Below are positions 12,671 to 50,960 of a stretch of DNA of 64,000 nt, one piece after another; the stretch's first letter is position 1; each line of letters starts with the position of its first letter. Where the stretch lies: the NCBI GenBank assembly GCA_012729375.1, contig JAAYDE010000004.1, positions 3,528 through 67,527 of the forward strand, given 5' to 3'. Source of the DNA: Deltaproteobacteria bacterium. GTDB taxonomy: Bacteria > Desulfobacterota > Desulfuromonadia > Desulfuromonadales > JAAYDE01. A model generated the notes under the pieces. The model made no database searches, was not told the DNA's origin, and saw nothing but the letters and a program-made list of their open reading frames with translations. Both the position numbers and the translations under genes were made by a program.

Positions 12671-12770
12671 AAAAAAAGTTCGTGGCTGTTGGCTCATAGC
12701 TCGTCAAGACTGCTGCCAAAGACAGCTCGAACAAGTCAAATTGCCAGCCACAAGCCACGAACCGTTTTTT
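12671..12770. repeat. Intergenic hairpin element A (heptad-periodic inverted repeat, A7...T6 flanks)
   Basis: Arms GTTCGTGGCTGTTGGC (12678-12693) and GCCACAAGCCACGAAC (about 12747-12762), roughly 14/16 complementary. Contains TCATAGCTCGT (12694-12704), related to the module seen in elements B and E. Confidence 0.7.
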
Positions 12771-12798
12771 AGTCGCCTTCACCAAAGAGGATTTTCCC

Positions 12799-13587
12799 AT
12801 GTTGGCTTTTCCCCAAATCGATCCGGTGCTGATCCGCATAGGACCTCTGGCGGTTCGCTGGTACGGGCTCATGTATCTATTGGCTTTTGGTGTCGGGTAC
12901 CTGGTGATCCGTGGCCTGGGCCGGCGGCGGAATGTCGCCATGGCCGACACAACCGCTTCCGACCTGCTGTTTCACGCCATGCTCGGAGTCATCCTCGGCG
13001 GCCGTCTTGGCTATGTCCTTTTCTACAATCCCGGTTATTACTTGCGGCATCCCTTGCGCATCTTTGCCGTCTGGGAAGGGGGGATGAGCTTCCACGGGGG
13101 GCTTCTGGGGGTGGTCGCCGCGGTGCTGATCTTCAGTTACCGAAAAAGGTTGCCGGTGTTGCTGGTGGCCGACATCATGGCCGCCGCGGCGGCTCCCGGC
13201 CTTTTTTTCGGACGCATCGGCAACTTCATCAACGGTGAGTTGTGGGGCCGGGTCACCGATCTTCCCTGGGGGATGGTCTTTCCCGGCGCCGGTTCGGCGC
13301 CGCGCCATCCCAGCCAACTTTATGAAGCCCTGCTCGAGGGCCTGGTGCTGACGGTGGTACTCCTCCTTCTGCACCGCCGCAAGGTTGCCCACGGCGTTCC
13401 TTTTTTCACTTTTTTCCTACTGTACGGGGTGTTCCGCTTCGCCGTCGAGTTCGTCCGTGAGCCGGACGCCCATCTCGGCTATCTGTGGGCTGGCGCCACC
13501 ATGGGACAGCTCCTTTCCCTGCCCATGATCGGCTTGGGTATAGTCGGCTTGATGCTGGTTTTAAAAAAGAAAAAGGCTCTACGATGA
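12799..13587 (+). CDS. lgt: Prolipoprotein diacylglyceryl transferase
   Basis: 262 aa. Blocks RWYGLMYLLAF, GGRLGYVLFY, FHGGLLG, GRIGNFINGELWG. Confidence 0.9.
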   Translation: MLAFPQIDPVLIRIGPLAVRWYGLMYLLAFGVGYLVIRGLGRRRNVAMADTTASDLLFHAMLGVILGGRLGYVLFYNPGYYLRHPLRIFAVWEGGMSFHGGLLGVVAAVLIFSYRKRLPVLLVADIMAAAAAPGLFFGRIGNFINGELWGRVTDLPWGMVFPGAGSAPRHPSQLYEALLEGLVLTVVLLLLHRRKVAHGVPFFTFFLLYGVFRFAVEFVREPDAHLGYLWAGATMGQLLSLPMIGLGIVGLMLVLKKKKALR

Positions 13588-14261
13588 ACAAAATCAAAGG
13601 GATCATTTTCGACTTCGACGGCGTGCTCTTCGACAGCCTCCACGCCAACCTGGCCTATTACAATACGGTCTTCGAGGCCTTCGGCGCTCCGCCGGTGACC
13701 GCCGACGATGGGGACAAGATGCTGCTCTGCCACACGGCGAACAGCGCCAGGGTTTTTGAGGTTCTGCTGGGGGAGGAAAAACGGGACGCGGCCCTGGCCT
13801 TCGCCGCCGACCTCGATTTCCACCGTTTCGTGCCGCTGATGGAACTGGAGCCGGGCCTTCTTCCCGCGTTGCGGGATTTGCATCAGAGCGTGACGCTGGC
13901 CGTGGCCACCAACCGCAGCGGCAGCACTTACGCGATCCTCGAACATTTTGACCTGGCCCGCTATTTCCGCACCGTGGTGACCTGTCAGGACGTGACCCGG
14001 CCCAAGCCCGATCCGGAGATGCTGCTGCTGGCGGCAGCGCGGATCGGGGCGGCACGGGACGAAGTGCTTTATGTGGGGGATTCGGAATTGGATCGGCGGG
14101 CGGCGGAGGCCGCGGGAATGTTTTTCCTCGACTACAAGGGGGCGGCCGGAGGAACCCTGAGGATCGATGGTCACTCCGAGCTGGTGTCCCTCTTTTTGAG
14201 CGGCGGCCTGGAGAGACGCTTGACCATCTCCAGCACGTTGCCTCCGTCCACCCTGCGGTAG
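13584..14261 (+). CDS. HAD-superfamily hydrolase (phosphoglycolate phosphatase-like subfamily IA)
   Basis: ATG at 13584 overlaps the lgt stop (ATGA). Motif I IIFDFDGVLFDS and motif III/IV YVGDSELD. The 3' end overlaps the convergent kinase gene by 91 nt. Confidence 0.8.
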   Translation: MNKIKGIIFDFDGVLFDSLHANLAYYNTVFEAFGAPPVTADDGDKMLLCHTANSARVFEVLLGEEKRDAALAFAADLDFHRFVPLMELEPGLLPALRDLHQSVTLAVATNRSGSTYAILEHFDLARYFRTVVTCQDVTRPKPDPEMLLLAAARIGAARDEVLYVGDSELDRRAAEAAGMFFLDYKGAAGGTLRIDGHSELVSLFLSGGLERRLTISSTLPPSTLR

Positions 14262-14629
14262 GAAACCTCGTCCATCAGGCAGCGGATGATGTGGATTCCC
14301 CGTCCATGATCGTTGAGGATGTTTTCATCGGGAGGGGGCAGGGAGTTGATGTCGAACCCCTGGCCCTGGTCGTGGACGCGGATGCGCAGGCAGTCGTTAT
14401 CGATGCCGATGGAGATGTGGACCTCCTTGTCGGGATCGGCCACGTTGCCGTGGATCATGGCGTTGGCGATCGATTCGGTCAGCACCAGGTTGATGTGGTA
14501 GGCCAGTTCTTCCCGGTCCCCGCCGTATCTATCGAGGGTGCGGGCGAGGTTCTCCCCGATGTTGCCGATCAGACTCAGGTAACGGGTCTTGTTGGGAATG
14601 CGGATATTGACTTCGATTTTGTCGTGCAT
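14171..14629 (-). CDS. RsbW/SpoIIAB-like anti-sigma-type serine kinase (HATPase_c)
   Basis: 152 aa. N-box ESIANAMIHGN and G-box HDQGQGF...GRGIHII. Confidence 0.85.
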   Translation of the reverse strand: MHDKIEVNIRIPNKTRYLSLIGNIGENLARTLDRYGGDREELAYHINLVLTESIANAMIHGNVADPDKEVHISIGIDNDCLRIRVHDQGQGFDINSLPPPDENILNDHGRGIHIIRCLMDEVSYRRVDGGNVLEMVKRLSRPPLKKRDTSSE

Positions 14630-14648
14630 ACCAACCCGGGTGAGGCGC

Positions 14649-14984
14649 TCAGAAGCTGGCCAGGGCTTCCGGAACGCCGGCGAAGATTTCGAAAACCCGA
14701 TGCAAACGGGTCAGCTCAAACATCGATTTCACCTGTGTCTGCAGGCCGCAGAGTTTGAGGCTGCCGTTGCGGGCGGTAGCGTTTTTGAAACCCGACACCA
14801 GGGCGCCGAGGCCGGAGGAATCGATGAAGCGCACTCCTTTCAGATCGATGATCATGTTGTTCCTGCCCGCCTCGAAAAGGCTCAGCATCTGGGATTTGAA
14901 TTCGTTGCTGTTGTGGGCGTCCAGGCGCTCTTCCTTCAATTCGACGATTACCGCTTTTTCATGCTCCGTGACATCGCAGTTCAT
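14649..14984 (-). CDS. STAS-domain anti-sigma-factor antagonist (RsbV/SpoIIAA-like)
   Basis: FIDSSGLGALV with the phosphorylatable Ser. ATG at 14984 preceded by GGAGGAA at 5-nt spacing (the track ORF extends to 15011). Confidence 0.85.
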   Translation of the reverse strand: MNCDVTEHEKAVIVELKEERLDAHNSNEFKSQMLSLFEAGRNNMIIDLKGVRFIDSSGLGALVSGFKNATARNGSLKLCGLQTQVKSMFELTRLHRVFEIFAGVPEALASF

Positions 14985-15229
14985 GCCGGTTCCTCCGCTG
15001 ATGGTGTCCAATGATTTTCAACGTCCATGAAAAACCAAATTTTTATAAACATAACACAGTTTATTCCCGGCGGGCGGAAAACCTGTCATCTGTGGACGCC
15101 GCGAAAGTCAAGATTTTGGCTTTCGCGACCCGGATTGCGGGTTCGCCAAAGCGCCGGCCGGGACCCAAGCGATTTCCCATGATAAAACGGCTTCATGAAA
15201 ACCCAGGGCGCCGTTTTAAAGCCGTTCTC

Positions 15230-18200
15230 TCACTTCTCCTCCACTTTGATAATCACCAGGGAAACGTCATCCTCGAGACTCTCCCTGCCGGAGAATTGGC
15301 GCACCGTGTTCAACAGTTCGACGGCGATCTCGGTGGGGTGGAGCTTGCGGCTGTTTTTAAGAAAAATTCGCAGACGCGCCTCGCCGAAAAGTTCCTGATT
15401 GTCGTCGCGGGCCTCGATAATGCCGTCCGTGTAAAGGAGCAGGATGTCGCCGGGAGCGAGGGTTTCCGTTTTTTCCTCGAAAGTGACCTCTTCCTTGATG
15501 CCGAGGATCAGCCCTTCGGCGTCCAAAAGCAGGCATTTTCCGGTGGCGGCGCGGAACAGCAAAGGCGGGTTGTGGCCGGCGCTGGCGTAGCTGAAGCGGC
15601 GGCTTTCGGGGTCGAGGCGCAGGTAGAAGAGGGTGATGAAGAGTTCCGCTTTGCTCAGGTCACGGTTGAAGAAGCGGTTCAGCGCCTGCATGATGCCGGC
15701 CGGCCCGGAAAAGTTGTGATACTGGGCATGGATGAAGGTCCGTGCCTCGGCCATCATCAGGGCGGCGCCGACATTGTGGCCGGAGACATCGGCGATGAGG
15801 ATGTCGAGGCTGCGGTCGCCGTTGATCAGAACGTCGTAATAGTCCCCGCCCACCTGACTGGCGGGTTCGCAGAAACCGGCCAGAGACAGCCCTTTGATCT
15901 GGGGCAGTTTGGCTGGCAGCAGGCTGAACTGGATGCGTTTGGCGATCTCCATCTCCTTCTGGTGTTCCTTGGCCTCCAGCAGCTTTTCCGTTTGCTGGGC
16001 GTTGCGCCAGGCCACTCCCAGCTGACCGGCCAGGCTGGTGAAGAACTCGGTGAATTCCTCGGTGAAAATCCCCTTGATGGTCCTGGAATAAGCGGAAAGC
16101 ACTCCCACCGGCTGGTTCTCGATGACAATGGGTGTGTGGGCCATCGATTTGATTCCTTCCCGGCGGATTATTTTTACCGAATCTGGATTGGTGACCGTTT
16201 CCGCGTCGTTGATGATGACCAGCGAATTCTTGCGGAAGGATTCAGTGACAAAGGTCTGTTCATGGAGCTGAATCCTCGAGGAGAGGAGATGCCCTTCGGT
16301 CATGCCGATCTGGCTTTTGACGACGAGGGCGTTCTGGGCCGGGTCGAAGATGCGGATGATGCACAAATCGAGCATGAACTGCTGTTCCAGAAGGCGCAGG
16401 ATATCGTCGAGAATGGTCTGCAACCCCTTGCCGCTGGCCACCATCCGCGCCGCTTCGTAGAGGACGCTAAGCTGCTCGCGGCTGGCGTTGCGGCTCAAGG
16501 TGACGTTGCCGAAGATATCGAAAACATCCTCCATCTTGCTGCCGCGGGCGGAAAGGTAATTTTCGATAATGATGCGTGCCGGCGCGGCCCCAACCGAACC
16601 CGCCAGGGTTTTTTCGGTGAATCGCTTGAGGGCCGGGACCTCCTGATCGGGGAGGGAGCCGCGGAGGTCGATGCCCTTATCCTTCAGATAGTCGCCGATG
16701 GCCGACTGGGCTCTCTCCTCACCGATGAACTTGGTCATCAACTCGACGAACTCGCGGACGCTGGGCGCTTTGCTGAGAATCTTCATGCCCGCCGGTTCGG
16801 CGGGGGGAGAGAGGGCATGGACGAAGCGGTCGACCTGTTCCAGTTCGCGGGGGGTGAGTCGGCCGAAGACGGATATAACCAGGAAGGAGCCGAGATTGAA
16901 CAGCAGGCTCCAGAACAGGGCGTGGGACCAGACGTCCAGTCCGGCCAGGCCGAAAAGGGCATGGGGGCGGAGCCATGAAATGCCCCAGGGGCCTTCTCCC
17001 AGGATGTCGCCGGGAAGCCAGCCGGAAGCGATCAGGGAAGGAATGAGCAGGGTGTAGCCCCAGATCAGGAAACCGGCGACCAGACCCGTGAGCGCTCCCC
17101 GGCGCGAGGCTTTTTCCCAGAGCAGGCCGCCGATCAGGGAGGGCGCGAACTGGACGGCGGCGACAAAGGAAATGAGCACGATATTGATCAGGCCGTAGCT
17201 GTCGGAAAGGGCTTTGTCGTAGAAATAGCCGCCGAGAATGATCAGAAAGATGGCAATCCGTTTGGTGTTGATGAGCATGCCGGAAAGGGAGGCGGCGCCG
17301 CTGCGGATCTTGAGGACGGCGGGGACCACCAGGTTGTTGAGGATCATGGTGGATAGGGCCACGGAAGTCACCATCACCATGCCCGCCGCGGCCGACAGGC
17401 CGCCGAGGAAGATCAGCAGGGTCAGCCAGGGCGGTCCCTTCTCCATGGGCAGGCGGAGGACGAAATAGTCGGCGGGAACGGCGCTGGCGCTGAAGAAAAC
17501 CAGTCCGGCCAGGGCGATGGGGATGATGAAGAGGGAGAATAGGAGCATGTAGGCCGGGAACAGCCACATGGCGGTGCGGATGTGTTTCTCCCGGCTGTTT
17601 TCGATGACCATGAGGTGAAACTGGCCGGGGAGACAGAGCGGGGCCAGCATGCCGATGATCAGCAGGGTAAACCACTGGGTGTAAGTAATGGTTGCGGTGG
17701 GCAGGGAAAGAAGCGCACCGGCCTGGTCGGCATGGCGGAAAAATTGCCGAAGGAGATCGTCGAGACCGTCAAAAAGACCGAAAGTGACAAAAAAACCGAG
17801 GGCCAAAAAGGCGCACAGTTTGACCAGGGATTCCAGGGCGACGGCGGCGATGAGCCCGTCATGGCGCTCCGAAGCGTCGAGGTGACGGGCACCGAAGAGA
17901 ACACAGAAAAGACCGAGGAGCAGGGCGATGATCAGGCCGCTGTCGATATAGGAGGGCAGGGAGGGCGACACGGCCGCCGGAACCTTTACCATTTGTTCGG
18001 CGGTGACGGAAAGCAGGTCGAAGGTGTTGAACAGATCGATCAGATGTTGGGGGCTGACCACCGGTGGAATCGACAGCATGTTGAAGGTGGTGGAAATGGC
18101 CCGCAGCTGGATGGCGATGTAGGGAAGGGTGCCGATGACGCAGAAAAGGGTTACCAGGGCACCGATGGAGGCCGATTTGCCGTAGCGGCTGGATATGAAG

Positions 18201-18511
18201 TCGGCGAAGCTGACGATGTGCTGTTCCCGGCTGGCCCGCACCATGCGCCGCAGCAGCAGCCACCAGGTTGTCGCGATAAGGCTGGGGCCGAGGAACAGGG
18301 GGAGAAAATCGAGGCCTTGGGTGGCCATCCTTCCTGTCGCACCGTAAAAGGTCCAGGCGCTCAGAAAAACATTGAGGGAAAGGGCGTAGACATAGGCGTT
18401 GGCGGTGATACTGTGGCCGGCCTTGCGGCACTTGTCGGCATAGAAGGCAACTCCGAACAGCACGCCGAAATAGAGCAGGGAAGTGCCGGCGACGATGGCG
18501 AAGGGGATCAT
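15230..18511 (-). CDS. Sodium:solute symporter (SSF/SLC5)-like membrane domain fused to GAF and PP2C/SpoIIE phosphatase domains
   Basis: 1093 aa. The N-terminal ~560 aa is polytopic and SSF-like. A central GAF-like region follows. The C-terminus carries SpoIIE-type PP2C motifs (GGDYYDV, ADVSGHNVGAALMMA, LLLYTDGIIEA, DDVSLVIIKV). Confidence 0.85.
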   Translation of the reverse strand: MIPFAIVAGTSLLYFGVLFGVAFYADKCRKAGHSITANAYVYALSLNVFLSAWTFYGATGRMATQGLDFLPLFLGPSLIATTWWLLLRRMVRASREQHIVSFADFISSRYGKSASIGALVTLFCVIGTLPYIAIQLRAISTTFNMLSIPPVVSPQHLIDLFNTFDLLSVTAEQMVKVPAAVSPSLPSYIDSGLIIALLLGLFCVLFGARHLDASERHDGLIAAVALESLVKLCAFLALGFFVTFGLFDGLDDLLRQFFRHADQAGALLSLPTATITYTQWFTLLIIGMLAPLCLPGQFHLMVIENSREKHIRTAMWLFPAYMLLFSLFIIPIALAGLVFFSASAVPADYFVLRLPMEKGPPWLTLLIFLGGLSAAAGMVMVTSVALSTMILNNLVVPAVLKIRSGAASLSGMLINTKRIAIFLIILGGYFYDKALSDSYGLINIVLISFVAAVQFAPSLIGGLLWEKASRRGALTGLVAGFLIWGYTLLIPSLIASGWLPGDILGEGPWGISWLRPHALFGLAGLDVWSHALFWSLLFNLGSFLVISVFGRLTPRELEQVDRFVHALSPPAEPAGMKILSKAPSVREFVELMTKFIGEERAQSAIGDYLKDKGIDLRGSLPDQEVPALKRFTEKTLAGSVGAAPARIIIENYLSARGSKMEDVFDIFGNVTLSRNASREQLSVLYEAARMVASGKGLQTILDDILRLLEQQFMLDLCIIRIFDPAQNALVVKSQIGMTEGHLLSSRIQLHEQTFVTESFRKNSLVIINDAETVTNPDSVKIIRREGIKSMAHTPIVIENQPVGVLSAYSRTIKGIFTEEFTEFFTSLAGQLGVAWRNAQQTEKLLEAKEHQKEMEIAKRIQFSLLPAKLPQIKGLSLAGFCEPASQVGGDYYDVLINGDRSLDILIADVSGHNVGAALMMAEARTFIHAQYHNFSGPAGIMQALNRFFNRDLSKAELFITLFYLRLDPESRRFSYASAGHNPPLLFRAATGKCLLLDAEGLILGIKEEVTFEEKTETLAPGDILLLYTDGIIEARDDNQELFGEARLRIFLKNSRKLHPTEIAVELLNTVRQFSGRESLEDDVSLVIIKVEEK

Positions 18512-18762
18512 GGGCGCCTCCGCTTTTGCCGGTTGCCGGCCTCATCCTGTTCGTCGTCCTCTCCTGGGAGGTTCCTGACAAAAAGGAAGATGGCAAGGAT
18601 CAGCAGGCCCCAGGTCAGAAACAGGAAGACAAGGAGAGGGGAAAGCCCGGGGGTTCGCGCCGTATCGCCGAAGATCCCCAGAAAGGGATAGTTGAGGAGA
18701 ATCATACCCGCCGCCAGCAGCAGGCAGATTTCAGGAACGGTTCCCGCAGCGGGTTTCTTCAT
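18508..18762 (-). CDS. 84-aa two-span membrane protein with acidic/basic tail, translationally coupled on both sides
   Basis: Its start overlaps the upstream stop and its stop overlaps the downstream start (ATGA in both cases). Two hydrophobic spans (ICLLLAAGMILLNYPFLGIF, LLVFLFLTWGLLILAIFLFV). Confidence 0.55.
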   Translation of the reverse strand: MKKPAAGTVPEICLLLAAGMILLNYPFLGIFGDTARTPGLSPLLVFLFLTWGLLILAIFLFVRNLPGEDDEQDEAGNRQKRRRP

Positions 18763-24970: not shown

Positions 24971-25099
24971 GAATCGTGTGAAGATGGCTGGCTGATGCCT
25001 GAAGGACAGTTTGTGGTTCGTAGCTCGTAGAAAAACCGGTAACCGGCAGCTTGTGATTGGTTTTTATGCTTTGACTATAACTGGTTGCTTGCTTATTGT

Positions 25100-25162
25100 T
25101 TGTCACTTGTCACTTGTCACTTGTCACTTGTCACTTGTCACTTGTCACTTGTCACTTGTCAC
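25100..25162 (+). repeat. Perfect tandem heptanucleotide array (TTGTCAC)x9
   Basis: Nine uninterrupted copies, counted directly. Confidence 0.95.
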
Positions 25163-25170
25163 TGTTTTTC

Positions 25171-25212
25171 TACCAGCTACCAGCTACCAGTTACCAGTTA
25201 CCAGTTACCAGT
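25171..25212 (+). repeat. Tandem heptanucleotide array (TACCAGC)x2 (TACCAGT)x4
   Basis: Six copies, counted directly. Separated from the first array by TGTTTTTC. Confidence 0.95.
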
Positions 25213-25258
25213 TACTGTTCCCTGACATGCCCCATTTTTCGTGGGTTGAAAATTCACC

Positions 25259-39315: not shown

Positions 39316-39358
39316 AAAAAAAAACGGCGGGGATCCAGATATCCTCGCCGTTTTTTTT
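39316..39358. terminator. Bidirectional intrinsic terminator (A9-hairpin-T8)
   Basis: ACGGCGGGGAT...ATCCTCGCCGT stem with one G-U pair, flanked by A9 and T8. Lies between convergent mscL and the PEP-binding-domain gene. Confidence 0.85.
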
Positions 39359-39377
39359 CCAAAATGATGCTGCTGTT

Positions 39378-39474
39378 GGTGACTGGTGATCGGAGGTTGG
39401 TTATGTATCTGATTTTACTAGTCACCAGTCACCAGTCACCAGTTTCCAGTTATCAATCACTAGTCACCACTTGT
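39378..39474. repeat. Intergenic element C (complement arm GGTGACTGGTGAT facing seven forward heptads)
   Basis: Heptads TAGTCAC CAGTCAC CAGTCAC CAGTTTC CAGTTAT CAATCAC TAGTCAC at 39419-39467. The left arm at 39378-39390 is complementary to the CAGTCAC units. Confidence 0.85.
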
Positions 39475-43943: not shown

Positions 43944-45284
43944 ATGACAACAAAGATTCAGGAGTTTCTTGAAGCCGTCGTTCGCAAGAATCCCGGGGAG
44001 ATCGAATTTCACCAGGCAGTTACCGAGGTTGTCGAATCGGTCATGCCGTTCATTGAAGAGAATCCCAAGTATGAGGAAGCCCGCATCCTGAAAAGGATGG
44101 TGGAGCCGGAGCGGGTGATCATCTTCCGCGTTCCCTGGGTCACCGACAAAGGAGAGATCAAGGTCAACCGCGGTTTCCGCGTCGAAATGAACAGTGCCCT
44201 GGGACCTTACAAGGGGGGGCTGCGCTTCCATTCCAACGTCAACCTGGGCACCCTGAAGTTCCTCGCCTTTGAACAGATTTTCAAAAACAGCCTGACCAGC
44301 CTGCCGATGGGCGGTGGCAAGGGGGGGTCCGATTTCAGTCCCAAGGGCAAAACCGACAACGAGGTGATGCGTTTCTGCCAGAGTTTCATGACCGAATTGC
44401 AGCGCCATATCGGGCCGGATACCGACGTTCCCGCCGGAGACATCGGCGTCGGTGCGCGGGAGATCGGCTACCTGTTCGGCCAGTACAAACGGATTCGCAA
44501 CGAGTTCACCGGTGTGCTCACCGGCAAGGGGCTGAACTGGGGGGGCAGCCGGATCCGCCCCGAAGCGACCGGTTACGGCTGCGTCTATTTCGTTGAAGAG
44601 ATGATGAAGACCCACGACGACTCGCTCCAGGGCAAGGTCTGCACCGTTTCCGGTTCCGGCAATGTCGCTCAGTACACCGTCCAGAAGCTGATCCAGCTTG
44701 GCGCCAAGGTGGTCACCGTTTCCGACACCCAGGGCTATGTGTACGACAAGGACGGTATCGACCAGGAGAAACTGGATTACATCCTGGTCCTGAAAAACAT
44801 CCGCCGCGGCCGGATTCGGGAGTACGCCGAGAAATTCAAATGTGAATTCCATGAGCACCAGCGCCCTTGGGGGGTTCCCTGCGACGCGGCCTTTCCCAGC
44901 GCCTATCAGAACGAACTGAACGGCGACGATGCCCGCAAGCTGGTGGCCAACGGCTGCCGGGCCGTCGGCGAGGGGGCCAACATGCCGACCACCCCCGAGG
45001 GGGTGCGGGTGTTTCTCAACGGCAAGGTGCTTTTTGGTCCGGGCAAGGCGGCCAACGCCGGCGGCGTGGCCACCTCGGGCTTGGAGATGAGCCAGAACAG
45101 CATGCGCCTTTCCTGGCCGATGGAGGAAGTCGACCGGCGCCTACATGAAATCATGATCGCCATCCACAAGAACTGCGTGAAATACGGGCGGGATGCGGAT
45201 GGTTTCGTCAACTACGTGAAAGGGGCCAACATCGCCGGCTTCATCCGCGTAGCCGACGCCATGATCGACCAGGGGCTGGTTTAA
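43944..45284 (+). CDS. gdhA: NADP-specific glutamate dehydrogenase
   Basis: 446 aa. LPMGGGKGGSDF catalytic-Lys motif and Rossmann VSGSGNVA. Confidence 0.95.
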   Translation: MTTKIQEFLEAVVRKNPGEIEFHQAVTEVVESVMPFIEENPKYEEARILKRMVEPERVIIFRVPWVTDKGEIKVNRGFRVEMNSALGPYKGGLRFHSNVNLGTLKFLAFEQIFKNSLTSLPMGGGKGGSDFSPKGKTDNEVMRFCQSFMTELQRHIGPDTDVPAGDIGVGAREIGYLFGQYKRIRNEFTGVLTGKGLNWGGSRIRPEATGYGCVYFVEEMMKTHDDSLQGKVCTVSGSGNVAQYTVQKLIQLGAKVVTVSDTQGYVYDKDGIDQEKLDYILVLKNIRRGRIREYAEKFKCEFHEHQRPWGVPCDAAFPSAYQNELNGDDARKLVANGCRAVGEGANMPTTPEGVRVFLNGKVLFGPGKAANAGGVATSGLEMSQNSMRLSWPMEEVDRRLHEIMIAIHKNCVKYGRDADGFVNYVKGANIAGFIRVADAMIDQGLV

Positions 45285-45309
45285 AATCAAGCATCTTTAA
45301 GGAAAAGGA

Positions 45310-45333
45310 AAGGCCGCGGCATGCCGCGGCCTT
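45310..45333. terminator. Hairpin shared by convergent gdhA and gcvPB
   Basis: AAGGCCGCGGC-AT-GCCGCGGCCTT (10-bp GC stem after opening the inner pair). Weakly T-rich on both sides. Confidence 0.7.
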
Positions 45334-45359
45334 ATTTCATCAAGGAACAGGGTTTTTGT

Positions 45360-46823
45360 TTACGGGTTTTCATGGCGCCAGCGCAGGCGCGGCTTGCGCG
45401 CCGCCAGCACCTCGTCGAGACGGCGGACGAGGGTGCGCCGCGGTGCCTCCTTGAGCAGCTCGGGGGAACTCCGCGCCTCTTCGGCGATGCGCACCATGGC
45501 CGCGCAAAACTCGTCCAGGCTCTCCTTGGTTTCCGTCTCCGTCGGCTCGATCATCAGCGCCCCCTTGATTACCAGGGGGAAATAGACCGTCGGTGGATGG
45601 AAGCCCAGGTCGATGAGCCGCTTGGCCACATCGAGGGTGTGGCAGTCTCCCGGCAGGTGCTGATCGGAAAAGACCACCTCGTGCAGGGAGCGTTCCGTGT
45701 GGGGCAGATGGAAGTGCCCTTCGAGGCGGCTGCGGATGTAGTTGGCGTTGAGCACCGCCATTTCCGTGGCCTGGCGCAGCCCGGCGGCACCGAGCATGCG
45801 GATGTAGGTGTAGGCGCGGACGAGAACGGCGAAGTTCCCGTAAAAGGCGCGCAGCCGGCCGATGGAGTCGGGGCGCTCACGATCGAAACGGTAACCGTCG
45901 CCGTCGCGGACGATGCGCGGCCGGGGCAGGAAGGGCTCCAGCTCTTTGGTGACGCCGATGGGGCCGGCGCCGGGGCCGCCGCCGCCATGGGGGGTGGAAA
46001 AGGTCTTGTGAAGGTTGAAATGCATGACGTCGATGCCGGCGTCCCCCGGCCTGGAGATGCCGAGGAGGGCGTTGAGGTTGGCGCCGTCGCAATAGACCAG
46101 CCCTCCCTTGGCGTGGACCGCTGTGCAGATGGCGGCGAGCTCTTTTTCAAAGAGGCCCAGGGTATTGGGGTTGGTGATCATGATCGCCGCCGTCTCTTCA
46201 TCCATGGCCGCGGCGACGGTGGCCGCGCTCAGGCAGCCGTTGGAGGCCAGCGGGGTCACCTCGTAGCCGCAGAGGGCCGCCGAGGCGGGATTGGTGCCGT
46301 GGGCGGTGTCGGGGATCAGCACCTTGCGGCGCGGGTTGCCGCGCTTCTCGTGGCTGGCGCGGATCACCATCATGCCGGTCAGCTCGCCGTGGGCGCCGGC
46401 CGCCGGATGGAGGCAGACGGCCGGAAACCCGCTGATCTCGCCGAGGAGTTCCTCCAGATGATGAATCAGCGCCAGTGCCCCCTGGCTGAGATCCTCGGAA
46501 GTGTAGGGGTGCAGCAGGGCAAAGCCGCCGATGCGTGCCGCCGCCTCGTTGACCTTGGGATTGTACTTCATGGTGCAGCTGCCCAGGGGGTAGAAGCCCG
46601 AGTCGACCCCGTAGTTCCAGGAAGAGAGGCGGGTGAAGTGGCGTACCACCTCCACTTCCGAAACCTCGGGAAAGCCTTCGATATCGTCCCGCGCCAGTTC
46701 CGCGGGGAGTTGCGCCCCGGGCACGTCTAATTCCGGCAGACGGCAGCCGCCGCGTCCGGGGCGGGAATGTTCGAAAATCAGTTTTTCGCGCAGCGCCAGG
46801 CCGCCGGTTCCCACTTCGTTCAT
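45360..46823 (-). CDS. gcvPB: Glycine dehydrogenase (aminomethyl-transferring) subunit 2
   Basis: 487 aa. PLP-lysine block HFNLHKTFSTPHGGGGPG. Start overlaps the gcvPA stop (ATGA). Confidence 0.95.
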   Translation of the reverse strand: MNEVGTGGLALREKLIFEHSRPGRGGCRLPELDVPGAQLPAELARDDIEGFPEVSEVEVVRHFTRLSSWNYGVDSGFYPLGSCTMKYNPKVNEAAARIGGFALLHPYTSEDLSQGALALIHHLEELLGEISGFPAVCLHPAAGAHGELTGMMVIRASHEKRGNPRRKVLIPDTAHGTNPASAALCGYEVTPLASNGCLSAATVAAAMDEETAAIMITNPNTLGLFEKELAAICTAVHAKGGLVYCDGANLNALLGISRPGDAGIDVMHFNLHKTFSTPHGGGGPGAGPIGVTKELEPFLPRPRIVRDGDGYRFDRERPDSIGRLRAFYGNFAVLVRAYTYIRMLGAAGLRQATEMAVLNANYIRSRLEGHFHLPHTERSLHEVVFSDQHLPGDCHTLDVAKRLIDLGFHPPTVYFPLVIKGALMIEPTETETKESLDEFCAAMVRIAEEARSSPELLKEAPRRTLVRRLDEVLAARKPRLRWRHENP

Positions 46824-48169
46824 GATTCACCTCCGGCCAGGGCGGCGATCAGGGTGTCGATCTCCTGGCGGCTGTTTTCTTCGGTGACGCATACCAGCAG
46901 GCGGTTTTCCTGCTCCGGGAAGAAACGCGCCAGGGGAATCCCCGCCAGGATCCCTTTTTCCTGCAGCCGCTTCAGGAGCAGTGCAGCAGTTTCCGGCGCC
47001 TCGACGACGAACTCGTTGAAGGTCGGCGCCGCGTAGGGAAGGGAATAGCCCGGCAGGGCGGCGATCCCTTTCTTGGCGTATTCCGCTTTGGAGTGGTTGT
47101 GGATGGCGACCCGGCGCAGCCCTTCTTTGCCCATCAGGGAGAGGTAGACGGCGGCGGTCAGGGCGCAGAGGCCGTGGTTGGAGCAGATGTTGGAGGTGGC
47201 CTTTTCGCGGCGGATGTGCTGTTCCCGGGTGGAAAGGGTCAAAACGAAGCCGCGCTGTCCCTCCTGGTCGACGGTTTCGCCGACGAGGCGGCCGGGGACG
47301 GAGCGCAGGTCTTTGTCGCGGACGGCGAAAAAGCCGCAGTGGGGGCCGCCGAAAGCGGGCGCAATGCCGAAACTCTGCACGTCGCCGACGACCATGTCGG
47401 CGCCGAAGTCTCCCGGCGGTTTGAGAAGAGCCAGGGAGAGGGCTTCGGCGACGGCGACGATCAGTTTGGCTCCCTTTTCGTGGACTGCGGCGGCAAAGGC
47501 GGCCAGATCCTCGATGGCGCCGAAGAAATTGGGGGAGCCGATGAGGACGGCGGCGGTCTGATCATCCGCCAGCGTCTCCAGCGCCGCCGCCTCGCTCCGC
47601 CCGGAGCTGCCCAGGGAAAGCGTTGCCACCTCGAGATCAAGGAAGCGGCAATAGCAATCCACCGTCTCCCGGTATTCGGGATGAAGGCCCGCCGCCACCA
47701 GGATTTTTTTGCGCTTAGTCAGGCGCGCCGCCATCAGGGCCGCCTCGGCCGCCGCCGAGGCGCCGTCGTACATGGAGGCGTTGGCCGCCTCCATGCCGGT
47801 CAACTGGCAGATCATCGTCTGGAACTCGAAGATGGCCTGCAGGGTTCCCTGGCTGATTTCCGCCTGATAGGGGGTGTAGGCGGTGGCAAACTCGCCCCTG
47901 GAAACCAAATAGTCGACCGCGGCAGGGGTGAAATGGCGGTAGGCTCCGCCGCCCAGAAAGGAGATGTGGGTGGCGGAGGTGGCGTTGGCCGCCGCCAGCC
48001 TTTCCAGCTCGCGGAGGATTTCCGGTTCGGAAACCGGCGGCGGCAGTGCGAGGGGACGGTTGAGGCGCAGCTTTTCGGGGATGCCGGAGAAAAGCGCTGC
48101 CGTCGACGGGACGCCGATGGCAGTGAGCATGCGCCGGACATCATCTGGGGTATGGGGGGTGAAGGTCAT
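46820..48169 (-). CDS. gcvPA: Glycine dehydrogenase (aminomethyl-transferring) subunit 1
   Basis: ATG at 48169 (MTFTPHTPDDVRRMLTAIG) matches the usual GcvPA N-terminus. The track ORF extends to 48202. Confidence 0.95.
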   Translation of the reverse strand: MTFTPHTPDDVRRMLTAIGVPSTAALFSGIPEKLRLNRPLALPPPVSEPEILRELERLAAANATSATHISFLGGGAYRHFTPAAVDYLVSRGEFATAYTPYQAEISQGTLQAIFEFQTMICQLTGMEAANASMYDGASAAAEAALMAARLTKRKKILVAAGLHPEYRETVDCYCRFLDLEVATLSLGSSGRSEAAALETLADDQTAAVLIGSPNFFGAIEDLAAFAAAVHEKGAKLIVAVAEALSLALLKPPGDFGADMVVGDVQSFGIAPAFGGPHCGFFAVRDKDLRSVPGRLVGETVDQEGQRGFVLTLSTREQHIRREKATSNICSNHGLCALTAAVYLSLMGKEGLRRVAIHNHSKAEYAKKGIAALPGYSLPYAAPTFNEFVVEAPETAALLLKRLQEKGILAGIPLARFFPEQENRLLVCVTEENSRQEIDTLIAALAGGES

Positions 48170-48194
48170 GTTTATATTCTCAAAGGATGAATGC

Positions 48195-48274
48195 GGTGAC
48201 AAACAGCAAGTGACGAGTGACGGGTTTTTTATTTTTATGATCTTAACTCGTTGCTCGTCGCTAAAAGTTGTCGG
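48195..48274. repeat. Intergenic element D (imperfect inverted heptad arms) filling the gcvH-gcvPA spacer
   Basis: Left arm GGTGACAAACAGCAAGTGACGAGTGACGGG, AT-rich loop, right arm AACTCGTTGCTCGTCGCTAAAAGTTGTCGG. About 10/13 complementary over the GTGACGAGTGACG core. Confidence 0.7.
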
Positions 48275-48664
48275 TTACTGATCCTCGTTTTCCAGGAACT
48301 CCCGGTAAGCGTCGGCGTCCATCAGTTCGTCGAGCTGAGAGGGGTCGTCGGGGCGAATCTTGACCATCCAGCCGTCGTCGTAGGGGGAGGTGTTGATGAC
48401 TTCGGGAGCGTCGGGAAGCTCTTCGTTGACCTCCTCGATGGTGCCGCTGATCGGGGCGTAGACGTCGGAAACGGCTTTGACCGATTCGACCACCGCAAAG
48501 GCCTTGCCGGCGAAAACCTGGGTGCCGACCTCCGGCAACTCGACGAATACGATGTCCCCCAGGGATTCCTGGGCATGGTCGGTGATGCCGACGGTGCACA
48601 GGTCGTCTTCGGCCAGCACCCACTCATGATCTTCGGTATACTTCAATTCTTCGGGAAATTCCAT
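48275..48664 (-). CDS. gcvH: Glycine cleavage system H protein
   Basis: Lipoyl-lysine motif [13 protein letters not shown] at 48664 ([16 protein letters not shown]). Confidence 0.95.
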
Positions 48665-48744
48665 GGTCAGCTCCTGTCGGTCAGTGTCGTTCAAGGGACA
48701 TGCGCCACGCTGGAGTTCACGGCTTTCGAGCCGCTTCCGTTGCC

Positions 48745-49842
48745 CTAGCGCGGGGGATAAAAGGGGGGCTTGATGATCAGCGCTGATCGCTTGCGCCCGT
48801 GGATGTCGATTTTCAGTCGTTGTCCCGGCTTCCAGGAGCCGGCCGCCACCAGGGCGATGGCGATGCCCTGGCGCAAAGAGGGGGAAAGGGTGCCGCTGGT
48901 GACCGTGCCGATGGGGCGGTCGCCGTCGTAGACAAGATATTTTTCCCTGGGGATGCCGGCTTCTTCCATCTGCAGACAGACCAGCTGGCGGGGGATGCCG
49001 TTGCGTTTGAGCTCCTCCAGGGCGGCTTTTCCGTTGAAATCGGCTTTGTCGAACTTCACCACCCAGGCAAGGCCGGCCTCCAGGGGGGTGATATCGGCAC
49101 TCAGTTCATGGCCGTAAAGGGCGTATTTCTTTTCCAGGCGCAAGGTATCGCGGGCGCCCAGGCCGACGGGCAGAAGACCCTGATCCTGCCCTGCGTCCAT
49201 CAGGGCGTTCCACACCGCCGCCGTCTCGTTGGCCGGCAGGTAGAGCTCGAAACCGTCCTCTCCGGTGTAGCCGGTGCGCGAGATCAGGGCGCACACCCCG
49301 GCGACCTTTTCCTCCACGAAATGGAAGGAAGGAAGGCCGGCGAGGCCGGCGCCGGTGATTTTGCCGAGAATGGCCCCGGCAGCGGGACCCTGAAGGGCGA
49401 GCAGGCCGTATTCGTCGCTCAAATTGGCCAATTGGACGTCAAATCCCTTTTCCGCGGCGATGGTTTCCATCCACGCGAAGTCCTCGTCGCAGCGGGAGGC
49501 ATTGACACAGAACAAATACTCTCCGTTGCCAACCCGGTAGAGGGTGGTGTCGTCCACGGTGCCGCCGTTGGGATAGCAGATGATGGTGTACTGGACCTGT
49601 CCCGGCGTCAGTTGAGAGGCGTCGTTGGTGGTCAGATACTGGATGAAGGCAAGGGCCTGGAAGCCCGTCACCCGGATCTGGCCCATATGGGAAACATCGA
49701 AAAGCCCCGCTTTACGACGCACGGCCAGATGTTCCTCGATAACCCCCGTCGGGTAGTTGACGGGCATCTCCCAGCCGGCGAAGGGGACCATCTTCGCCCC
49801 CAGCAGGCGGTGGATTCCATGGAGCGCTGTCTTCTTCAGCAT
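48745..49842 (-). CDS. gcvT: Glycine cleavage system aminomethyltransferase T
   Basis: ATG at 49842 ([30 protein letters not shown]) preceded by GAGGAGG. Confidence 0.95.
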
Positions 49843-49883
49843 GGCCGGTACCTCCTCACTCTCCACTGACGTTGGTAAAGTGT

Positions 49884-50756
49884 TTAGCACTGCTTTGGGG
49901 AATTGGCAAGAATCTCCGGAATACGTTTTTCCTGGCCCAGGGTCATGAGATGGACCCCCTGGCAGCAGGTACGGGCGAAGCGGACCAGCTCGCCGGCGAT
50001 GGCGACGCCTTCTTCCGTGGGATCAGCGGCTTTTTCGAGTCTTTCAATGATTGTTTGGGGAACCCGCACGCCGGGAATGTTGGCGTTGAGAAAACGGCAC
50101 ATGCGGGCGCTTTTGAGCAGAAGAACGCCTGCCAATACCGGCACGCCGAGAGGGGCGGCGGCGTCCATGAAGCGCGCCAGTTTGGCGGTGTCGAAGATGG
50201 CCTGGGTCTGAAAAAAGCGCGCCCCCGCCAGCACCTTTTTGCGGAATTTGTGGAACATCAGCTCGAAGGGCTCTCCTTCCGGCACGGCCGCCGCGCCGGG
50301 GAAAAAAAAGGGGGCCCGGCTCAGGGGCTTGCCGGCCATGTCGAAACCGCCGTTGAGGCCTTTCACCACTTTCAGAAGGTGGATGGAGTCGAGGTCGAAG
50401 ACGGGACGGGACTGCGGGTGATCGCCGAAGGAGGGATGATCCCCGGAGAGCAGCAGCAGGTTTTCGATGCCGAGCAGGGAGGCGCCGAGGAGTTCCGACT
50501 GCAGCGCCATGCGGTTGCGGTCGCGGCAGGTGAGCTGCAGAACCGGTTCGCAGCCGGCGCGGGCCAGAACGGCGGCCACCGCCACCGGACTGGTGCGCAT
50601 GTTGGCCCCCTGGTTATCGGTGACGTTGACGGCCGTCACGCCCTTCAGAGCGGCGGCCTGTTCCAGAATGACGTCGAGGCCGACTCCCTTGGGCGGGGCG
50701 ATTTCGGCGGTAACGACGAAGCGGCCCAAGGCCAGCTGTTCACTTAAACGGGACAT
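49884..50756 (-). CDS. metF: Methylenetetrahydrofolate reductase, acetogen-type MetF subunit
   Basis: ATG at 50756 (MSRLSEQLALGRFVVTAEIAPPKG), 290 aa. The upstream part of the track ORF merely reads through heptad repeats. Confidence 0.9.
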   Translation of the reverse strand: MSRLSEQLALGRFVVTAEIAPPKGVGLDVILEQAAALKGVTAVNVTDNQGANMRTSPVAVAAVLARAGCEPVLQLTCRDRNRMALQSELLGASLLGIENLLLLSGDHPSFGDHPQSRPVFDLDSIHLLKVVKGLNGGFDMAGKPLSRAPFFFPGAAAVPEGEPFELMFHKFRKKVLAGARFFQTQAIFDTAKLARFMDAAAPLGVPVLAGVLLLKSARMCRFLNANIPGVRVPQTIIERLEKAADPTEEGVAIAGELVRFARTCCQGVHLMTLGQEKRIPEILANSPKQC

Positions 50757-50804
50757 TTGATCGATTCCTGGTCCAGCCTCATGGGTCAAAGGAAGTAGGG
50801 TTCT

Positions 50805-50960
50805 GTGACTGGTGACTGGTGGCTGGTGATTGGTGACTGGTAAAAACAACGCATGGCTCGTAGCTCGTGGTTTGTAAAAAGCCGGTGACGAGGGACAAGT
50901 AACGAATAACTAATTAAAATCAAAAGGCAAAAATCCGGCACTTGTCACTCGTCACCAGCC
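50805..50960. repeat. Intergenic element E ((GTGAYTG)x5 array, GGCTCGTAGCTCGTGG module, 17-bp inverted repeat) in the metV-metF spacer
   Basis: GTGACTG GTGACTG GTGGCTG GTGATTG GTGACTG at 50805-50839. TCGTAGCTCGT at 50858-50868. GGTGACGAGGGACAAGT (50884-50900) versus ACTTGTCACTCGTCACC (50940-50956), 16/17 complementary with a 39-nt AT-rich loop. Confidence 0.9.

Follow-up and report, generated by a model that had tools for sequence, protein, structure and literature searches.

Five spacers in a 64,000-nt window (the whole stretch of DNA analyzed here) from an uncultured Desulfuromonadaceae bacterium carry copies of one family of degenerate heptanucleotide repeats, whose unit has the core GTNAC plus 2 nt. 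The copies lie in gaps between housekeeping genes (5 sites/64 kb) and, judged by the units and modules that they share, are a true dispersed family rather than separate slippage products. Alignment with a sister species further shows the full composite form of the repeat in different, nonorthologous spacers of the two genomes. As a whole, these observations are best explained, with a confidence that we place slightly above even, by a single lineage-specific dispersed heptad repeat that would change by slippage, spread between spacers, and have a predicted role as an RNA hairpin.

Direct checking of the sequence placed the five spacers, and every string quoted from them in a first-pass annotation, exactly where that annotation had put them: GGTGACTGGTGAT is present at 39378-39390, GGTGACGAGGGACAAGT (50884-50900) faces ACTTGTCACTCGTCACC (50940-50956) with 16/17 complementarity, TCGTAGCTCGT is found at both 25018-25028 and 50858-50868, and TCATAGCTCGT is found at 12694-12704. 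The pattern GTYACNNGTYAC has 17 matches, against 0.06 expected from shuffles, and all but one of these (in a coding region at 56155) fall in spacers B, C, D, and E. Period-7 arrays were called by Tandem Repeats Finder (Table 1), and self-identity at a lag of 7 nt falls from 0.58 (spacer B) through 0.51 (E) and 0.42 (D) to 0.35 (C). The value for spacer A, 0.29, is inside the range of ordinary spacers; the heptad periodicity previously attributed to all five is thus clear in four and weak in A, which is the weakest member of the family. The elements are extragenic, as had been claimed, none of the five overlapping a credible CDS; an open reading frame over 50805-50849 starts at an upstream TTG, and the MTHFR gene, as called on further contigs from this species, starts at 50756.

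Table 1. Heptad-repeat spacers of the window, their component parts, and the period-7 arrays called in them
Feature	Position	Strand	Content or context	Tandem Repeats Finder array
Spacer A	12671-12770	+	Pseudouridine synthase to Lgt	
A, flanking runs	12671-12677; 12765-12770		A7; T6	
A, 5' arm	12678-12693		GTTCGTGGCTGTTGGC, then module-2-like GGCTCATAGCTCGT	
A, 3' arm	12743-12762		GCCAGCCACAAGCCACGAAC	
A, decayed array			CAGTCAC type (AGTCGCC TTCACCA), comes next	
Spacer B	25013-25215	+	Solute-binding protein to permease	
B, module 2	25015-25030		GGTTCGTAGCTCGTAG, then A5	
B, short 5' arm	25036-25046		CCGGTAACCGG	
B, next segment	25053-25060		GTGATTGG, then AT-rich stretch	
B, array	25100-25163		(TTGTCAC)9	25100-25163, 9.1 copies, 100%
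B, T run	25165-25169		T5	
B, module 1	25171-25215		(TACCAGY)6.4, reverse-complement orientation	25171-25215, 6.4 copies
Spacer C	39378-39469	+	Between convergent MscL and PPDK-like genes	
C, 5' arm	39378-39390		GGTGACTGGTGAT, then loop	
C, array	39419-39469		Degenerate (CAGTCAC)7	39420-39469, 7.1 copies
Spacer D	48195-48262	-	GcvH to GcvPA; module-3 hairpin alone, one arm decayed	
D, first arm	48195-48224	+	GGTGACAAACAGCAAGTGACGAGTGACGGG, then AT-rich loop	
D, second arm	48246-48262	+	AACTCGTTGCTCGTCGC	
Spacer E	50805-50960	+	MetV-like to MTHFR, genes on - strand; full composite	
E, module 1	50805-50841		(GTGACTG)5, then linker GTAAAAACAACGCAT	50805-50841, 5.3 copies
E, module 2	50855-50870		GGCTCGTAGCTCGTGG, then TTTGTAAAAA	
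E, module 3, 5' arm	50881-50910		GCCGGTGACGAGGGACAAGTAACGAATAAC	
E, loop motif	50916-50936		Loop includes AAAATCAAAAGGCAAAAATCC	
E, module 3, 3' arm	50938-50960		GGCACTTGTCACTCGTCACCAGCC	

The earlier claim that a single related family occupies all five spacers is borne out both by the units and modules that they share and by comparison with two relatives, a sister species (L211; 85% protein identity) and a species at ~80% identity. CAGTCAC recurs in C and E, TTGTCAC in B, D, and E, and TCGTCAC in D and E, and nonrepetitive parts, namely, the 21-nt loop motif, GGTTTGTAAAAA, and module 2, are kept between copies at nonorthologous sites. In the GcvH-GcvPA spacer of the sister species, the ~150-nt composite of spacer E recurs with its three modules and loop in the order seen on the + strand of E (89.7% identity over 145 nt), running opposite to the genes. 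Spacer D, the window ortholog of this GcvH-GcvPA spacer, aligns to module 3 of that full composite. The sister species has 6 sites/35 kb; its site for spacer A spans 82 nt with another mix of modules, and its spacer B shows 94% identity in the nonheptad part, the contig ending inside the array. The species at ~80% identity lacks the repeats in all four spacers compared (A, 4 nt; B, 63 nt; D, 84 nt; E, 1 nt) and has no period-7 array within 41 kb. The absence of the family from this next relative shows it, on the evidence of these spacers, to be young.

Comparison of orthologous spacers, proposed in the first-pass annotation, thus recovered both presence/absence, the ~80% species being empty, and unit-number change between strains and between sister species. 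Spacer E differs between strains by one 7-nt unit (204 versus 211 nt), the majority allele of this indel giving a perfect 17-bp stem; in the sister species, the arms of this spacer are unequal, with about 12 units on the 5' side and 4 on the 3' side. With the loci co-oriented, the loop motif at an orthologous site switches strand between the two species (-, window species; +, sister species). At the level of these alignments, copies are shown to change by gain or loss of 7-nt units, by one arm expanding independently, and by inversion of the loop that separates the inverted arms.

On the basis of these observations, the five spacers may be viewed as copies of one repeat at various stages of growth and decay. 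The full element is a nested imperfect palindrome, with an outer layer formed by a GTGACTG array facing a CAGTCAC array, inside which lie a GTAGCTC/GAGCTAC module and then an A run and a T run, the innermost part being a hairpin with GTGACGA/TCGTCAC arms and a conserved AT-rich loop. Unit number probably changes by replication slippage in a 7-nt register, a known behavior of prokaryotic heptanucleotide repeats, and spread among spacers could involve recombination or gene conversion between copies or an enzyme acting in trans. The main cellular consequence would be a stable transcript hairpin at the 3' ends of genes and between cistrons, although many copies are possibly neutral passengers.

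Folding of the RNA, scored as z against dinucleotide shuffles, limits the previous description of the elements as hairpin forming to four of the five spacers, because spacer B as a whole folds no better than shuffles (z = -0.15), its module 2 pairing with the CTACCAG array in the predicted fold. Spacer A reaches -40.2 kcal/mol (z = -3.75), its hairpin being flanked by the A7 and T6 runs; spacer C, which is the outer-layer hairpin alone (module 1 and its reverse complement), reaches -34.3 kcal/mol on the + strand (z = -2.7) and -32.4 kcal/mol on the - strand (z = -2.8); D has a z of -2.4; and the E hairpin, read on the gene-sense strand, reaches -38.5 kcal/mol (z = -8.35) with U5 after it. For the direct arrays of B and E, folding is no better than that of shuffles (z about +1 and 0). 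An ordinary bidirectional terminator, separate from the element, lies beside spacer C at about 39320-39360.

The module-3 hairpin is 6 to 15 kcal/mol more stable, via G.U pairs, on the strand with a T run after the hairpin. This asymmetry is independent of the host genes, the favored strand being sense in E and antisense in D (-28.0 kcal/mol on the + strand, antisense to the genes, versus -13.4 sense), and may reflect inheritance from a single ancestral copy rather than per-copy selection, the five copies being nonindependent. Both species retain a T run (U5 and U7) after the E hairpin; none follows hairpin C or D. A combination of hairpin and T run, as in A and E, with a T5 also following the TTGTCAC array in B, might act as an intrinsic-terminator-like attenuator or a 3'-end stabilizer. 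The same role has been proposed for REP sequences and cyanobacterial STRR hairpins. The likely effect is a transcript hairpin, or a structure resembling a terminator, at the 3' ends of genes. A consensus terminator scan did not call the heptad hairpin sites, whose loops, at 25 to 45 nt, are much longer than those of typical intrinsic terminators. Were a strong terminator to lie between metV and metF, it would separate genes that overlap or abut in relatives (overlapping or 10 to 40 nt apart in more distant ones, the latter in n = 20), and no convincing promoter was found downstream of the hairpin in this spacer.

The likeness to REP/REPIN or MITE elements drawn in the first-pass annotation stands insofar as the sister species confirms a dispersed composite repeat, but the defining features of either class are lacking: no target-site duplications were found and the RAYT-like gene of the window is not flanked by elements, so that membership in both is unsupported. 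That the copies are MITEs, nonautonomous elements with heptad arrays as terminal inverted repeats and moved in trans by a transposase whose gene lies outside them in the genome, seems to us unlikely. Their occurrence at nonorthologous sites in both orientations, mutually inverted ends (left, GTGACTG arrays; right, NNGTCAC arrays), sizes of 100 to 290 nt, and AT-rich interiors would fit, as would the constant spacing between IS elements and comparable paired repeat sites in G. metallireducens. However, module content varies among copies, unlike that of near-identical cut-and-paste products, the window holds no candidate transposase with matching ends, the composite was not found in plasmid and phage collections, and the sister-species spacers are too diverged for a target-site duplication or sharp boundary to be defined. 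Mobilization as REP/REPIN-type elements by the window's own RAYT-like Y1 (HUH) transposase (59398-60372), whose substrate would be the single-stranded DNA hairpins plus the module-2 GTAG motifs, is quite improbable. This protein combines Y1_Tnp and DnaA_C domains, and several sources name its relatives RayT, but its match to the NCBIfam REP-associated tyrosine transposase model is weak (55.5 bits) and under the family cutoff of 80. GTAG does occur twice in module 2, about 17 nt upstream of the base of the hairpin, and a G.U asymmetry of fixed strand regardless of host gene direction is expected of an element processed as a single strand. Against this, the gene belongs to a compact cassette whose ends are a separate, perfect 10-bp inverted repeat (GGGACGTTGT/ACAACGTCCC), the same ends surround homologs in three other genome contexts with heptad arrays absent nearby, and the sister species, with more elements per kilobase, has no such gene at its syntenic GroEL/ThiI-like junction.

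The arrays could instead serve as binding sites for a protein whose contacts with nucleic acid recur every 7 nt; we give this little credence. Candidates would be a nucleoid protein (IHF/HU, for example, which has been proposed for Geobacter) and a cold-shock-domain protein that would bind the nascent RNA arm and tune hairpin formation (antitermination). A lineage-specific binding partner would yield a restricted vocabulary, and that of this genome is narrow, the units of relatives being quite different; moreover, binding by global regulators or Csp/S1 proteins has been suggested for analogous repeats. Common descent of the copies nevertheless accounts for the vocabulary without selection, unit number and sequence drift freely between the sister species, and the binding protein is hypothetical. 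Among pattern-selected loci from other phyla, a GTGAC array precedes a GTCAC array in 21 cases versus 1 in reverse, but this bias comes mainly from one phylum and falls to about 7 to 1 by lineage (p = 0.07), and in viral contigs control heptad cores gave 64, 116, and at least 120, versus at least 120 for GTCAC. Separate in situ slippage in each spacer, with the shared vocabulary a mutational coincidence, is scarcely credible: heptanucleotide slippage is frequent in prokaryotes and unit number does differ among strains and species, but identical units occur at different loci, the nonrepeat parts are retained at nonorthologous sites, and the composite shared between nonorthologous spacers of the sister species contradicts such an origin. 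We retain the single dispersed heptad repeat as the preferred reading.

Like REP/BIME/REPIN sequences, the heptad elements are extragenic palindromic repeats found at gene 3' ends and between operon cistrons, in inverted pairs; spacer B, between binding-protein and permease genes, is a classic REP position, mRNA 3'-end protection is plausible for both, and the window has a RAYT-like gene. REPs, however, are palindromes of 20 to 40 nt without internal periodicity, with GTAG beside the stem and a REP-flanked RAYT gene, and the heptad elements share none of these traits. Modular comparators are the pneumococcal BOX element (boxA-boxB(n)-boxC) and foldback-type elements with inverted arms of short tandem repeats, which are likewise modular, nonautonomous, and intergenic, with variable subunit copy number and strong predicted secondary structure; they are unrelated in sequence, and the subunit is 7 nt here versus about 45 nt.

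The strict heptad periodicity had been thought unusual, but intergenic heptanucleotide repeats are catalogued in Geobacter and 7-bp repeats are known in cyanobacteria; according to Mrazek 2007, as relayed in PMC4679880, heptanucleotides are the most frequent unit of long prokaryotic simple-sequence repeats. In 523 kb from relatives, we found 13 period-7 arrays versus 0 to 3 for any other period. The cyanobacterial STRRs are 7-bp hairpin-forming repeats that, between hupS and hupL, were suggested to raise transcript stability (PMC2670836). They resemble the present family in their 7-bp tandem units, many dispersed intergenic copies, hairpins between cistrons, and proposed effect on transcript stability or coupling, and arrays of the CAGTGAC/GTCACTG type are present in Scytonema as well as in other cyanobacteria. 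The phylum differs, STRRs are described as simple arrays without a nested composite or conserved nonrepeat modules, and the likeness implies no homology. Geobacter genomes have catalogued intergenic families (Aklujkar et al. 2009, 2010; PMC2700814, PMC2996986), including, in G. bemidjiensis, [CAATTGA]n, with about 57 intergenic loci mostly 3' of one gene and 5' of another, and [AACGTTG]n, and, in G. metallireducens, paired inverted 7- to 9-nt tandem arrays termed global regulator sites of classes 1 to 3. No GTCAC-type arrays were found in the supplementary tables searched, the units being YWGTYAC here versus CAATTGA, AACGTTG, MTYCTGA, and GTTGCTYN, and neither a three-module composite with a conserved loop nor loop inversion nor strand-asymmetric G.U pairing is described for Geobacter. 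Common to both are Desulfuromonadales/Geobacter-group hosts, lineage-specific tandem units of 7 (7 to 9) nt that fill intergenic regions, a location mostly between codirectional genes or at convergent 3' ends, and often two opposite-strand arrays at variable distance, with several possible in one spacer. The five-spacer family, young and fast-changing, is a local form of the intergenic heptanucleotide repeats known from Geobacter and cyanobacteria.

The organization of the elements emerges from comparison with the sister species (GCA_012512925.1 and a Logan contig; MTHFR and SpoIIE-type phosphatase both 85% identical to those of the window), whose GcvH-GcvPA spacer contains a complete three-module composite (see the table). 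On its plus strand, window spacer E is colinear with this composite, and the two are 89.7% identical over 145 aligned bases. The two sites are nonorthologous, and the element is oriented oppositely relative to the genes in the two; copies have therefore spread between spacers. This sharing of the composite at nonorthologous sites of the relatives compared rules out five independent products of slippage. The five spacers thus contain a single family of dispersed composite elements, window copies A to D being partial versions of the same nested palindrome as E. The first-pass annotation had already proposed one dispersed family, which the composite in relatives upholds, and every coordinate and string quoted in it proved correct when checked against the sequence. 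Its "second module," GGYTCRTAGCTCGT, is also real but is itself two heptads (GTAGCTC) that pair with the CAGCTAC-type array, to which the string is complementary in the fold of spacer B.

Locations and contents of the repeat elements and neighboring features; positions are those of the window unless a stretch from another genome (L number) or the sister species is named
Feature	Location	Strand	Content
Spacer A (pseudouridine synthase to Lgt)	12671-12770		A-run/hairpin/T-run, module-2-like stretch, decayed outer array
Spacer B (solute-binding protein to permease)	25013-25215		Module 2, A-run, short 5' arm, 3' arm of nine TTGTCAC, T-run, reverse-complement module 1
Spacer B, array	25100-25163		TTGTCAC x9.1, 100% identical (Tandem Repeats Finder, period 7)
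Spacer B, array 2	25171-25215		TACCAGT x6.4 (Tandem Repeats Finder, period 7)
Bidirectional terminator	39320-39360		A-run, GC-rich 10-bp stem, T-run; z = -4.5
Spacer C (MscL/PPDK-like)	39378-39469		Outer layer only: module 1 facing reverse-complement module 1
Spacer C, array	39420-39469		x7.1, 76% (Tandem Repeats Finder, period 7)
Spacer D (GcvH to GcvPA)	48195-48262		Module 3, one arm decayed
Spacer E (MetV-like to MTHFR)	50805-50960		
Spacer E, array	50805-50841		GTGACTG x5.3 (Tandem Repeats Finder, period 7)
Composite, module 1	Sister GcvH-GcvPA spacer	As window E, +	(GTGACTG/GTAACTG)n, then GTAAAA
Composite, module 2	Sister GcvH-GcvPA spacer	As window E, +	GGCTCGTAGCTCGYGGTTTGTAAAAA
Composite, module 3	Sister GcvH-GcvPA spacer	As window E	Hairpin, arms CCGGTGACGAGTGACAAGTAACGARTAAC and GTCACTCGTCAC, loop TAAAATCAAARGGCAAAAATCC
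DksA-FolD spacer	52516-52789		
Poly-C tract in DksA-FolD spacer	~52735-52750	-	
Y1_Tnp-DnaA_C gene	59398-60372		Y1 (HUH) transposase fused to DnaA C-terminal helix-turn-helix
Y1_Tnp-DnaA_C cassette	59346-60382	+	~1.04 kb, conserved leader TTTATTTGTTGACTAA
Cassette inverted repeat, perfect 10 bp, first copy	59346-59355		GGGACGTTGT
Cassette inverted repeat, second copy	60373-60382		ACAACGTCCC
GroEL gene	60473-62113	-	
9-nt tandem repeat in GroEL gene	60479-60514		CATGCCGCC x4
Sister contig end in spacer B array	L224 1-73		(TTGTCAC)n
Pyrinomonadaceae nested hairpins, very stable	L118 2-151; L057 4715-4852; L065 2984-3134; L097 553-633		
MTHFR-GcvT junction hairpins	L137, L138, L139, L143, L144, L148, L152, L153, L165, L188; directly after MTHFR stop		

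The window has a G+C content of about 60%, encodes housekeeping genes, and is matched by same-species metagenome contigs carrying identical proteins; the nearest named relatives of two of its proteins are Desulfuromonadaceae MAGs at 85% identity, and at the DNA level GroEL shares 78% identity with a Desulfuromonadales MAG. These matches place the source organism among the uncultured Desulfuromonadaceae. The tandem repeat within this GroEL gene is the reverse complement of the C-terminal Gly-Gly-Met repeats and is ordinary there. No tRNA genes were found in the 64 kb, an Rfam 15 search of the window gave no matches at the gathering threshold, and a permissive Rfam search of spacer E brought up nothing beyond noise from generic long hairpins (miRNA precursors), well short of the threshold. 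At least three head-to-tail 7-nt units are present in spacers B, C, and E, with 5.3 to 9.1 copies by Tandem Repeats Finder. Lag-7 self-identity, computed on a gene map based on codon usage, is highest in B (0.58) and E (0.51), followed by D (0.42) and C (0.35); spacer A, at 0.29, does not differ from ordinary spacers. Matches to GTYACNNGTYAC number 17 against 0.06 expected from shuffles, 16 of them in spacers B, C, D, and E, and loci with related units are dispersed between genes in both the 64-kb window and 35 kb of the sister species. Each of the five elements lies downstream of the 3' end of at least one gene, and none of the seven divergent (promoter-only) spacers of the window contains one. 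Across the whole family, the heptads share a conserved core, GTNAC, a 5-bp interrupted palindrome of the MaeIII/Tsp45I type, followed by two variable bases. Likenesses to the DnaA box, the Pho box (CTGTCAT), omega-repressor heptads (WATCACW), and the RSS heptamer probably do not hold, their spacing or orientation being inconsistent. The heptanucleotide families of G. bemidjiensis likewise have palindromic cores (CAATTG+A and AACGTT+G).

In the sister species, the elements occupy the same spacers as in the window, much rearranged and with large differences in unit number, and two of the six sites found in 35 kb (the DksA-FolD and BPL-PanK spacers) have no window counterpart. Ten same-species contigs differ little from the window, and on one side of it such contigs stop within about 1 kb. 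Their spacer E nevertheless varies: it measures 204 nt in the window and one contig versus 211 nt in the other nine, the alleles differing by one heptad and one substitution, with the majority allele forming a perfect 17-bp stem. Unit number is hence polymorphic in multiples of 7 between strains as well as between species. In the next relative, at about 80% protein identity, the four spacers compared (A, B, D, and E) measure only 4, 63, 84, and 1 nt, respectively, and 41 kb contains no period-7 array, from which it follows that the family expanded after that split; in about 20 more distant relatives the MetV-MTHFR gap is 10 to 40 nt. Spacer E of the sister species has about 12 units in its 5' arm and 4 in its 3' arm, so the arms expand independently. 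Further, the 21-nt loop motif lies on the minus strand in all 10 window-species contigs and on the plus strand at the orthologous, co-oriented sister site, and the loop has therefore been inverted between inverted arms. One sister contig ends inside the TTGTCAC array of spacer B; such repeats thus break short-read assemblies and will be underrepresented in MAGs. The poly-C tract in the DksA-FolD spacer of the window differs by one base among same-species contigs (spacer lengths of 273 and 274 nt), with one variant also having a T-to-C change at the tract's edge, and the length difference is either true variation or assembly noise.

The elements had been annotated as hairpin forming throughout. 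RNA folding against shuffles bears this out for the hairpins of A (z = -3.75), C (z = -2.7), D (z = -2.4), and E (-38.5 kcal/mol, z = -8.35, followed by U5) but not for the direct arrays of B and E, whose folds, like that of the entire spacer B, are no more stable than those of shuffles. The core of the element consists of a stable stem between an A-run and a T-run: both species keep the T-run that follows hairpin E (U5 in the window, U7 in the sister), and hairpin A is bordered by A7 on one side and T6 on the other. The module-3 hairpin gains 6 to 15 kcal/mol in stability when folded on the strand that places the T-run after it because mismatches on that strand are G.U rather than A.C, and the gain holds both sense (E, three copies) and antisense (D, two copies) to the genes. 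This asymmetry fits an element shaped in a single orientation as one strand, be it RNA or single-stranded DNA; since the five copies are related, it may also be no more than an inherited trait.

Three points weigh against a simple terminator role: the loops are 25 to 45 nt long (between arms of 17 to 30 nt with internal 7-nt periodicity), spacers C and D have no U-tract, and metV-metF, where a strong terminator would require a promoter downstream, yielded none downstream of the spacer E hairpin in a consensus promoter scan. A consensus terminator scan did not call the elements' sites because its loop limit excludes such hairpins, and the few weak -35/-10-like matches in arms and loops are not above shuffles in one of two regions. 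An ordinary bidirectional terminator lies between MscL and element C, so that neither of the convergent genes needs element C for termination. We assign the family to the STRR/REP-like dispersed repeats. Its main effect is probably to place a hairpin in the transcript at gene 3' ends, as an attenuator or stabilizer; the elements would grow by slippage in 7-nt steps and spread by recombination among copies or through some activity in trans.

Other readings involve mobility in a stricter sense. The outer arrays are inverted copies of each other (GTGACTG ... CAGTCAC), as in the MITE likeness suggested earlier; their ends are ragged and variable. No parent (autonomous) element with the same ends was found in the window, and plasmid and phage collections gave no match. 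Comparisons of filled and empty sites were confined to species at 80 to 85% identity, and when the DksA-FolD spacer, filled in the sister and empty in the window, was aligned, the flanks were too diverged for a target-site duplication to be read. We consider it improbable that the composite is a self-contained mobile unit read or processed single-stranded in one fixed orientation, an idea that arises because, on the T-run strand, the inner hairpin has retained G.U pairs and not A.C, be that strand sense or antisense to the host genes. If true, the composite would be a portable A-run/hairpin/T-run "terminator cassette" settling between cistrons or, in an alternative form, a small structured RNA or single-stranded-DNA intermediate settling at cistron junctions.

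Membership in REP/REPIN, a likeness put forward in the first-pass annotation, is not supported, since the RAYT-like gene is without flanking heptads and GTAG is not directly 5' of the stem. The protein in question, a Y1_Tnp-DnaA_C fusion, scores 55.5 bits against a RAYT model with a cutoff of 80 and belongs to a very large family named RayT by several sources. Around its gene lie a 10-bp inverted repeat belonging to the gene's own cassette and an ordinary terminator, with no heptad elements, and this is equally true of homologues 63 to 72% identical (stretches L215 to L223, from a Geobacter sp. MAG, a MAG labelled Anaerolineae, and a Deltaproteobacteria MAG). The cassette ends and leader recur in these homologues, with the inverted repeat conserved at 10 to 11 bp and no heptad arrays within 10 kb. 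The protein was provisionally rejected as the cognate enzyme of the elements because the homologue flanks constitute such an inverted-repeat cassette without heptads; in itself, the cassette has the look of a small IS-like unit that has been transferred widely. The element-rich sister species is without this gene at the one junction compared, the syntenic GroEL/ThiI-like one. REPs are imperfect palindromes of 20 to 40 nt with GTAG directly 5' of the stem, whereas the window elements have 17- to 30-nt arms and 25- to 45-nt loops, with GTAG in module 2, some 17 nt away from the stem. The window elements thus do not show the arrangement that defines REP/RAYT.

Scanning one genome per species for (NNGTCAC)4 yielded at least 120 stretches, and the matches listed come from Acidobacteriota (many Pyrinomonadaceae), Verrucomicrobiota, Planctomycetota, Chloroflexota, Cyanobacteria, Bacteroidales, Dialister, and others. 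Among these listed matches, a GTGAC array faces a GTCAC array no more than 120 nt away at 21 loci versus 1 in the reversed order (P = 1e-5 by locus; about 7 to 1, P = 0.07, by lineage). Also among them, nested heptad hairpins with GTGAC on the left and GTCAC on the right occur in Pyrinomonadaceae, Verrucomicrobia, Chloroflexi, and Dialister, facing arms mirror each other even at variable positions, and some of the nested hairpins have an inner pair of different heptads; many of the listed hairpins reach -45 to -97 kcal/mol, and flanking A-runs and T-runs accompany only some. The Pyrinomonadaceae examples have outer arms of GTGACRA/TYGTCAC and inner hairpins of GTGATGA or GTGAATC heptads. In viral contigs, control cores gave counts of 64, 116, and at least 120 versus at least 120 for GTCAC; GTCAC itself is therefore not special, and a special GTCAC core across phyla was rejected. 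The order bias is an unexplained lead rather than a finding. Were the single-strand mobile unit real, this cross-phylum design might be the sign of a widespread class of elements, as yet undescribed, that share one mechanism.

The question of what such repeats do goes back to the Geobacter genome papers and the work on cyanobacterial STRR. In the stretches examined from the two Desulfuromonadaceae species, as many as about one-seventh of the intergenic spacers contain them. They add about 100 to 200 nt of strongly structured DNA between genes, metV-metF and rluD-lgt, that in relatives overlap or are directly adjacent; operon expression is therefore likely to be altered. The sister-species comparison gives a handle on this question through the three-module composite, its nonorthologous sites, unit slippage, loop flipping, and strand-specific pairing. 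More broadly, 523 kb from relatives contains 13 period-7 arrays versus 0 to 3 for every other period, the units of which (TTTGAAT, GCTGATA, and GGCTAAA among them) bear little likeness to those of the window; frequently such an array comes immediately after the stop codon of MTHFR and has an inverted counterpart. Unrelated hairpins occupy the MTHFR-GcvT junction in many Desulfuromonadales relatives, their arms consisting of tandem 7- to 9-nt units (TTTGAAT, CTTGGTGN, CACAGAGG, and GGGGAAT), which looks like repeated independent colonization of one operon junction.

A literature search with the heptad strings themselves matched only primer noise; the type of repeat, by contrast, has several precedents. 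According to Mrazek 2007, as relayed in PMC4679880, heptanucleotides are the most abundant unit of long simple-sequence repeats in prokaryotes and are attributed to polymerase slippage. In G. bemidjiensis, some 57 intergenic loci are annotated as [CAATTGA]n, alongside another family, [AACGTTG]n; most lie 3' of one gene and 5' of its neighbor, and multicopy sequences take up 12% of the intergenic regions of this genome (PMC2996986). Tandem arrays of 7 to 9 nt, paired on opposite strands at variable distance, are found in G. metallireducens and have been proposed as IHF/HU sites (PMC2700814), and the cyanobacterial STRR are 7-bp repeats forming hairpins between hupS and hupL that may stabilize transcripts (PMC2670836). 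Given these precedents in Geobacter, cyanobacteria, and relatives, the kind of repeat is already known, and the finding adds no new kind of element; what is new is one particular family and its better-resolved anatomy as a three-module composite, which shares with the LSSR, STRR, and Geobacter repeats its 7-nt tandem units, dispersed intergenic loci, and unit-number polymorphism.
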